This document shows, piece by piece, positions 25,065 through 25,475 of a stretch of 64,000 nt of DNA. Source of the DNA: Escherichia phage Pu-Krd-SF3. Made by a program: the position numbers and the translations under genes. How positions within the stretch are numbered: the first letter of the stretch is position 1; each line of letters starts with the position of its first letter. Location: sequence record PQ249397; one strand, 5' to 3'. The notes under the pieces are model-generated. The model worked only from the letters and a program-made list of their open reading frames with translations, was not told the DNA's origin and searched no databases.

Positions 25065-25083
25065 AATAACGCGTGGCGGAAAT

Positions 25084-25431
25084 ATGAATTTTAATTATTA
25101 CCCTATTCTATTAGAAAAAGACGCGAAACAGCCAAAATGGCAAGGTCCTCAGTTTATTAAAGGTGTCTATCAATTAGTAGTTCCTAAAGACAAGATTTAT
25201 AGTAGCTGTTTCACTGAATCCGCTTGCAGTATTTTCGGTAATAGTTCTCCGTATTGGAATTTTGACATAAAGCTGGATAGAAATATCGATATTTGGTTGA
25301 AAGCTATGGATATTGGTAATATTACGTTTGATGAGAATAATTATCATATTATTGGTCGCTTTTCCAAACGCGGTAAAGAATTATATTTCGCGCCTGAAAT
25401 TGAGAGAAAATTTGATGCTAAACCGTATTAA
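25084..25431 (+). CDS. hypothetical protein, 115 aa (inserted between frd and td)
   Basis: ORF starting 20 nt after the frd stop; no recognisable motif; no counterpart in T4 as I recall it. Confidence 0.5.
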   Translation: MNFNYYPILLEKDAKQPKWQGPQFIKGVYQLVVPKDKIYSSCFTESACSIFGNSSPYWNFDIKLDRNIDIWLKAMDIGNITFDENNYHIIGRFSKRGKELYFAPEIERKFDAKPY

Positions 25432-25475
25432 TTATTAGCTTCATAAAATGTATTATAATTTATATAAGGTACTAA

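Follow-up and report, generated by a model that had tools for sequence, protein, structure and literature searches.

The genes for dihydrofolate reductase (frd) and thymidylate synthase (td) overlap by four nucleotides (ATGA) in phage T4, the phage in which almost all of the genetics and biochemistry of T-even nucleotide metabolism has been done. In Escherichia phage Pu-Krd-SF3, the same two genes are separated by an open reading frame (ORF) of 115 codons, here called ORF115, and by a short A/T-rich spacer. Which of the two arrangements came first, how is the intervening ORF expressed, and what might its product do? We addressed these questions within a 64,000-nucleotide stretch of the phage genome (record PQ249397), which is referred to as the window. 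Its segment 24900-25600 (701 nt) is 100% identical, at the same coordinates, to record PQ759884.1 of phage Pu-Krd-SF4, and the phage belongs to the genus Tequatrovirus. A first-pass annotation made from the letters of the window had placed the frd end, the 115-aa ORF, the td start and a TATAAT hexamer near td, all of which agree with the sequence and the ORF list. The features of the locus are as follows.

24483-25064, + strand: frd (dihydrofolate reductase), 193 aa, stop codon TGA at 25062-25064; from the ORF list and database annotation, with 97.4% amino acid identity to T4 Frd
24997-25031, + strand: homologue of the T4 middle promoter Ptd, within the frd 3ʹ end
25058-25066, + strand: left copy of the 9-bp direct repeat TAAATGAAA, spanning the last frd codon and the stop codon
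25065-25083, + strand: 19-nt spacer, a relic of the frd 3ʹ tail, carrying a weak ribosome-binding site for ORF115 (GGCGGA)
25084-25431, + strand: ORF115 (RB32ORF229c; PHROG 1928), 115 aa, 13.6 kDa, pI 8.5
25435-25465, + strand: A/T-rich promoter-like block specific to Tequatrovirus, with a MotA-box-like aTTAGCTTCA (25434-25443), a 10-nt spacer and TATAAT (25454-25459)
25466-25469, + strand: td Shine-Dalgarno sequence AAGG
25473-25481, + strand: right copy of the 9-bp direct repeat TAAATGAAA, spanning the td start codon
25476-26024, + strand: td exon 1 (thymidylate synthase), ATG at 25476; from the ORF list and database annotation
26025-27037, + strand: td group I intron, with I-TevI at 26156-26893; end of exon 2 at 27352

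The ATG at 25084 is the earliest start codon in the ORF115 reading frame, and the 64-kb window holds no second copy (paralogue) of the gene. An Rfam scan of positions 23000-28000 (E<=0.1) returned zero matches, the group I intron family included, presumably because the ribozyme core of the td intron is split by the I-TevI ORF. Elsewhere in the window, a free-standing homing endonuclease gene is annotated at 21551-22183 (+), between the helicase-loader gene and gene 32.

The T4 junction was compared with that of the window. The overlap stated in the first-pass annotation is indeed what the T4 record contains (NC_000866, minus strand; td end at 145112, frd start at 145109), with no ORF between the two genes. 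T4 lacks ORF115, and a tblastn search of T4 positions 140500-146500 (6 kb, from inside nrdA to inside frd.2) found no homologue. The 9-mer TAAATGAAA begins at 25058, at the end of frd, and again at 25473, at the start of td. Removal of positions 25058-25472 (415 bp, one repeat copy included) yields a junction that agrees with T4 at every position within ±60 nt, and a 9-mer common to both sites arose by chance in 80 of 20000 shuffles.

Further evidence on the order of events comes from Mosigvirus, where Frd is 205 aa long and frd reads through ‘...AAAAATGAAATAGCTACTGGCGGAAAATATGAATTTTAA’ to overlap the start of the ORF by 11 nt. In the alignment, Tequatrovirus frd lacks two A residues that are present in Mosigvirus, which brings a TGA into frame. 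Because the 19-nt spacer at 25065-25083 aligns with the Mosigvirus frd tail, with 2 nt missing, it is a relic of a longer frd tail. The T4 frd end is of the truncated Tequatrovirus type, and therefore the T4 fusion is later than the truncation. Taken together, these observations indicate that the T4 frd/td fusion is a secondary 415-bp deletion between the TAAATGAAA copies, and that the ORF115-bearing state is the common and ancestral one. The first-pass annotation had taken the T4 fusion as the reference state and ORF115 as an accessory gene added to it. This framing is reversed by the fact that the T4 fusion arose after the frd end had been truncated, and the frd-ORF-td order is the majority arrangement in Tequatrovirus, where the T4 type accounts for ~17 of ~514 records.

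The upstream side of frd also differs from that of T4. An 81-aa ORF (RB32ORF231c, phrog_3183) at 24238-24483 (+) overlaps the frd start codon in the window; in T4, frd.1 and frd are separated by 71 intergenic nt instead. Since RB32ORF231c is likewise missing from T4, the window has on either side of frd a small ORF that is absent from that phage. The product of frd.1 (23985-24227) is 100% identical in amino acid sequence to its T4 counterpart.

Searches with tblastn located ORF115 homologues in 585 phage records. Approximately 362 of these carry the protein at >=90% amino acid identity, including T2, T6, RB6, RB14, RB18, RB27 and RB51, and a further 223 records encode homologues of <60% identity. 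An exhaustive HMMER scan of 1.8 billion representatives yielded 15 genuine clusters of 99-116 aa, with homologues at about 26-48% identity. One additional hit (P0018, 838 aa) was rejected as spurious, being a TPR-repeat protein matched over 40 residues only. In every case inspected, the homologue lies directly 3ʹ of frd, mostly overlapping the frd stop codon; six or more other Tevenvirinae genera show this order with homologues of 28-46% identity. The phages inspected were JD18 (Jiaodavirus), CIP9 and Kosakonia 305 (Kanagawavirus), Melville (Gelderlandvirus), CHI14 (Winklervirus), R3_1 (Marfavirus), and OLB35 and Shf125875 (Mosigvirus, 93% identity). Similarly, six of seven divergent metagenomic members have a DHFR gene on one side and a thymidylate synthase gene on the other. 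The exception, P0017 (locus L017:1248-1577), is found on a T4-like contig in the neighbourhood of regB and vs (the ValRS-modifier gene), where it overlaps a gene of the RlaP family (PF10127) at the start of the latter. From this distribution, we infer that ORF115 is a genuine, vertically inherited Tevenvirinae gene whose ancestral site is directly downstream of frd. The gene is already known in the sense that it has been annotated for years as the hypothetical protein RB32ORF229c, with no assigned function, in hundreds of genomes where similar small unassigned ORFs are common. A literature search returned no paper on RB32ORF229c or on a gene between frd and td, and a general search on frd and td gave nothing relevant.

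An even sample of 60, drawn from the 514 records matching the T4 junction, showed three states of this site. The fused form occurs only in the four records closest to T4, and most of the sample carries an additional ~416 bp corresponding to ORF115 (type X). The third class is longer than T4 by 206 bp and encodes a 68-aa ORF (ORF Z; phrog_9550, MSNKLKVKDVPNAMALFICRQMHQG...) that is unrelated to ORF115, overlaps both frd and td, and is represented by phage fFiEco06 (locus L010:750-956). ORF Z takes the place of ORF115 in ~135 Tequatrovirus records at >=90% identity. Subtraction of the X (~362) and Z (~135) records from 514 leaves ~17 of the T4 type, in agreement with the 17 records found at >=99% identity. 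The junction comparison across T2, T6 and the RB series that had been proposed in the first-pass annotation finds ORF115 in T2, T6, RB14 and RB51. ORF Z also lies just 5ʹ of td in Kanagawavirus and Marfavirus, and was located at L005:3173-3379 and L008:3148-3354. The phAPEC8-like phages, which do not belong to the T4 group, encode homologues of ORF Z with 40-44% identity, and this occurrence suggests a small mobile gene.

Could ORF115 nevertheless be a chance reading frame in non-coding spacer? Nothing favours this explanation except the missing functional annotation, and it is almost certainly wrong. Residues 4-111 of the product align with positions 2-125 of the 126 in the uncharacterised family PHROG 1928 (E=2e-35). 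Nei-Gojobori dN/dS values for ORF115, calculated against T2, T6, Lutter, FriedrichMiescher and two Mosigvirus copies, are mostly 0.014-0.05, with dS of up to 0.74-0.93; the highest (0.145, versus Lutter) rests on just five substitutions. Values of 0.014-0.049 at a dS of up to 0.9 refute a spurious ORF, as do the invariant residues shared by homologues at about 26-48% identity and the confident fold prediction described below. For the same pairs, dN/dS is 0.17-0.25 for frd and 0.04-0.09 for td exon 1. Thus, ORF115 is under tighter constraint than the DHFR gene. When Tequatrovirus is compared with Mosigvirus OLB35 and Shf125875 (loci L012 and L016), identity is 93% for ORF115, 85.5% for Frd and 91.8% for Td exon 1, and ORF115 is therefore the best conserved of the three. 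These values, with PHROG 1928 as the only family matched, bear out the first-pass view of a gene without a recognizable motif. The outcomes named there as refuting it did not occur: the ORF is absent from T4, and it is strongly conserved. In the sister isolates Pu-Krd-SF1 (locus L013) and SF2, a TT insertion at the equivalent of window position ~25244 frameshifts ORF115, which is unannotated there; the insertion reflects either a sequencing error or a natural knockout. The gene is dispensable, since T4 and the Z-type phages do without it and the SF1/SF2 copy is frameshifted.

Expression of ORF115 can be considered with reference to a promoter already mapped in T4. The start site of the T4 middle promoter Ptd has been determined experimentally at 145142 (Hinton review, Table 1, PMC2988021). 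It falls within the 3ʹ end of frd, 30 nt ahead of the td ATG. From -60 to +26 relative to this start, the window is 100% identical to T4. The homologous element comprises a MotA box (aaaTGgTTgA, 24997-25006), a 12-nt spacer, a -10 element (TAAAAT, 25019-25024) and a start-equivalent A at 25031. It conforms to the MotA rule (box 8/10, spacer 12, -10 5/6), from which activity in this phage is predicted, and its combined score of 13 compares with 12 for the 95th percentile of random windows. The start equivalent is 53 nt upstream of the ORF115 ATG and 445 nt from td. Because it precedes the ORF115 start codon, ORF115 would lead the ‘Ptd’ transcript in ORF-bearing phages, with td second. The element is present in Mosigvirus too, and a Ptd-like promoter is not recognizable upstream of homologues in more distant genera. 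With moderate confidence, then, ORF115 appears to be the first cistron of a MotA-dependent Ptd middle transcript in Tequatrovirus and Mosigvirus, and Ptd probably evolved as the promoter of ORF115 plus td.

The question raised in the first-pass annotation, whether td gains its own promoter here, has to be put differently: T4 td already has Ptd, which in the window is fully conserved and lies upstream of ORF115 rather than in the new spacer. The A/T-rich block between ORF115 and td (~25435-25465, ~30 nt) is found in Tequatrovirus and is lacking from the Mosigvirus spacer. It occurs once in the window and is annotated as ‘promoter’ in phage Lutter. It contains a MotA-like box (ATTAGCTTCA, 8/10) and a TATAAT (6/6), but it fails the MotA rule by one base, with a spacer of 10 bp versus the published 12±1; at spacers of 11-13, the box scores merely 3-6 of 10. 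A consensus scan for sigma-70 (T4 early) promoters did not call the block at 25434-25459, where a -35-like hexamer at a distance of 16-18 nt is absent. The predicted start (~25466) would coincide with the first base of the td Shine-Dalgarno sequence, which also counts against a promoter. The hexamer had been located correctly just upstream of the td ribosome-binding site, but by itself it carries no significance, as TATAAT is found 111 times in the window (54 on one strand and 57 on the other; 36% GC). Judged by its sequence elements, the block looks promoter-like and is a candidate second promoter for td. The literature search found no report of transcription or translation of the ORF in any phage.

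Searches with the 115-aa product, of the kind recommended in the first-pass annotation, matched PHROG 1928 and returned nothing from Pfam, NCBIfam or PDB. Neither the single sequence nor the family profile matched any entry in Pfam, NCBIfam, PADLOC or the PDB sequences, and no detectable homology ties ORF115 to Frd, Td or a ligand. A tandem paralogue (type Y, 115-124 aa) lies between the X gene and td in Kanagawavirus, Marfavirus, Gelderlandvirus and Winklervirus (L005:2817-3176, L008:2790-3143, L006:2809-3156, L007:2814-3188 and L009:2817-3176). All 11 of the X and Y sequences tested match PHROG 1928, and a search with the combined X+Y profile retrieved only phage proteins of 110-120 aa, with no domain fusions. 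Across 23-24 sequences of both types, residues Q16, W19, G27, G91, K95 and G97 are invariant, and L9, Y29, N79, R92, F93 and F102 are nearly so. ORF115 contains the motif IIGRFxKxGxxxYF, in which GRFxKxG forms a hairpin. No acidic (D, E), His, Cys or Ser residue is invariant across the 23-24 sequences, a pattern that favours a binding function over an enzymatic one. An AlphaFold2 model built from an 18-sequence alignment (pLDDT 89.9, pTM 0.83) places strands at residues 6-12, 27-34, 62-64, 80-82, 86-96 and 99-104 and a helix at 68-76. A Foldseek search of this model against the PDB gave nothing significant (best E-value 0.36), and a fold search of BFVD recovered only uncharacterised proteins of T4-like phages.

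Several explanations for the gene can be weighed against this evidence. T-even phages carry many seg and mob endonuclease genes between conserved genes, and records of the BASEL phages label the ORF115 product a ‘putative homing endonuclease’. A mobile element inserted between frd and td, whether a free-standing homing endonuclease or another kind, would fit the presence/absence polymorphism relative to T4 and the 9-bp direct repeats that flank the insert. However, no GIY-YIG, HNH, LAGLIDADG or PD-(D/E)XK signature was matched in Pfam or PHROG scans of 24 family members, no acidic or His residue that could serve in catalysis is invariant among the 23-24 sequences, the model is not nuclease-like, and its structural neighbours include zero nucleases. 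The protein is also far below the size of Seg and Mob enzymes, and the cross-genus synteny, the frd-tail relic and the very low dN/dS indicate vertical inheritance. A homing endonuclease is effectively refuted at the level of sequence and structure, mobile insertion in general is very improbable, and the annotation is unsupported because no nuclease fold or motif was found. An improbable candidate, though a better one, is a small OB-like barrel that binds nucleic acid, for example as a pre-replicative regulator acting on mRNA or ssDNA. The predicted order β1-β2-β3-helix-β4-β5 fits the OB pattern, and the weak, non-significant structural matches are enriched for OB, S1, SSB, RPA and Stn1 domains. 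In the model, aromatic and basic residues (W19, Y29, R92, F93 and K95) mostly fall in or near a loop and the hairpin, and the pI of 8.5 is compatible with such a role. Against this, hhalign comparisons of the family with a CspA sequence and with gp32 of the window were negative.

A stronger contender, although still an unlikely one, is that ORF115 encodes an accessory protein for anti-defence or host takeover: small, confined to phages, neutralizing a host factor or immune sensor, kept in some lineages, swapped for the 68-aa ORF Z in others and lost in T4. The three states (X, Z and none) at one site within a single genus are consistent with this role, as are the dispensability of the gene (absent from T4, frameshifted in SF1/SF2), the small, phage-restricted product that lacks an enzyme motif, and the likely pre-replicative expression predicted from its promoter. 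Rapid turnover is common among counter-defence genes, however, and ORF115 has a deep and fixed linkage to frd across at least six genera, together with a dN/dS of ~0.03, a constraint stronger than that on frd. In addition, no known family was matched and no literature was found. PADLOC defence profiles gave zero ORF115 matches at E<=10, a result that is uninformative on this point, given that its models describe defence rather than anti-defence systems.

The reading that we prefer, with a probability of roughly 55%, combines a vertically inherited gene, a deletion in T4, middle expression from Ptd and a binding protein of the nucleotide module. ORF115 would be made in the pre-replicative period, along with td, from Ptd. 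Its 13.6-kDa product would be a compact, mostly β, non-enzymatic binding protein. Its place of action might be the nucleotide-precursor module of frd, td and nrd, where it could, for instance, modulate Frd, Td or the complex that synthesizes dNTPs, or serve them as an adaptor. It could pair with itself or with the tandem paralogue, and Y may form a heterodimer with X. Taken alone, the proposal that this compact, non-enzymatic protein acts within the frd-td-nrd module is made with low confidence. ORF115 is translationally coupled to frd in most genera. An obligate partnership with Frd is argued against by the fact that Frd sequence does not sort by ORF presence: the Frd proteins of Lutter (X) and fFiEco06 (Z) share 99.5% identity, and that of T4 shares 97-98% with each of them. 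The location of the divergent member P0017 away from frd also counts against the preferred reading, and the presence, replacement and loss of the gene within one genus fit an accessory host-interaction gene as well. The failure to recognize a Ptd-type promoter in distant genera is a further point against the preferred reading. More speculative, and rather unlikely, is the proposal that PHROG 1928 represents an unseen fold and that the protein, without being catalytic itself, regulates or partners the DHFR-thymidylate synthase module or the dNTP complex. It would form homodimers in Tequatrovirus and X-Y heterodimers in other genera. If true, such a partner would have been overlooked for decades because the model phage had deleted its gene.

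Whatever its function, the gene changes how the T4 locus should be regarded. T4 is atypical here: the gene that it lacks is present in about 70% of the genus, is kept at the same place in at least six other genera, and is under tighter constraint than frd. The results thus depict T4 as a derived outlier and suggest that ‘Ptd’ is the promoter of ORF115 plus td in most T-even phages. They also indicate that the homing-endonuclease annotation should be dropped. As the family has no structural or sequence relatives outside the T4-like phages, any function found for it will be new information, and it constitutes a well-defined, testable gap in T-even biology.

Comparison with known systems places ORF115 more precisely. 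The RB32ORF229c proteins of T2, T6, RB14, RB32, RB51 and other Tequatrovirus phages are products of the same gene; the T2 and T6 copies are 99.1% identical to ORF115 in amino acid sequence and occupy the same site between frd and td, and the window has Ala103 where T2, T6, Lutter and FriedrichMiescher have Thr. Paralogue Y resembles ORF115 in sharing Q16, W19, G27, G91, F93, K95 and G97 and in matching PHROG 1928, but differs in its 19-aa insertion after W19, its shorter C-terminus and its absence from Tequatrovirus, the window included. OB-fold domains (SSB, RPA, S1 and Stn1/Ten1) recur among the weak, non-significant matches of the ORF115 model, whose predicted order of strands and helix fits theirs. 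Like Seg/Mob enzymes and I-TevI, ORF115 is present or absent between two conserved genes, whereas it has no nuclease domain or catalytic residues, is one half to one third their size, and sits in vertically inherited synteny. Finally, the first cistron downstream of Ptd is td in T4, whereas in the window that position is predicted to belong to ORF115, with td as the second.
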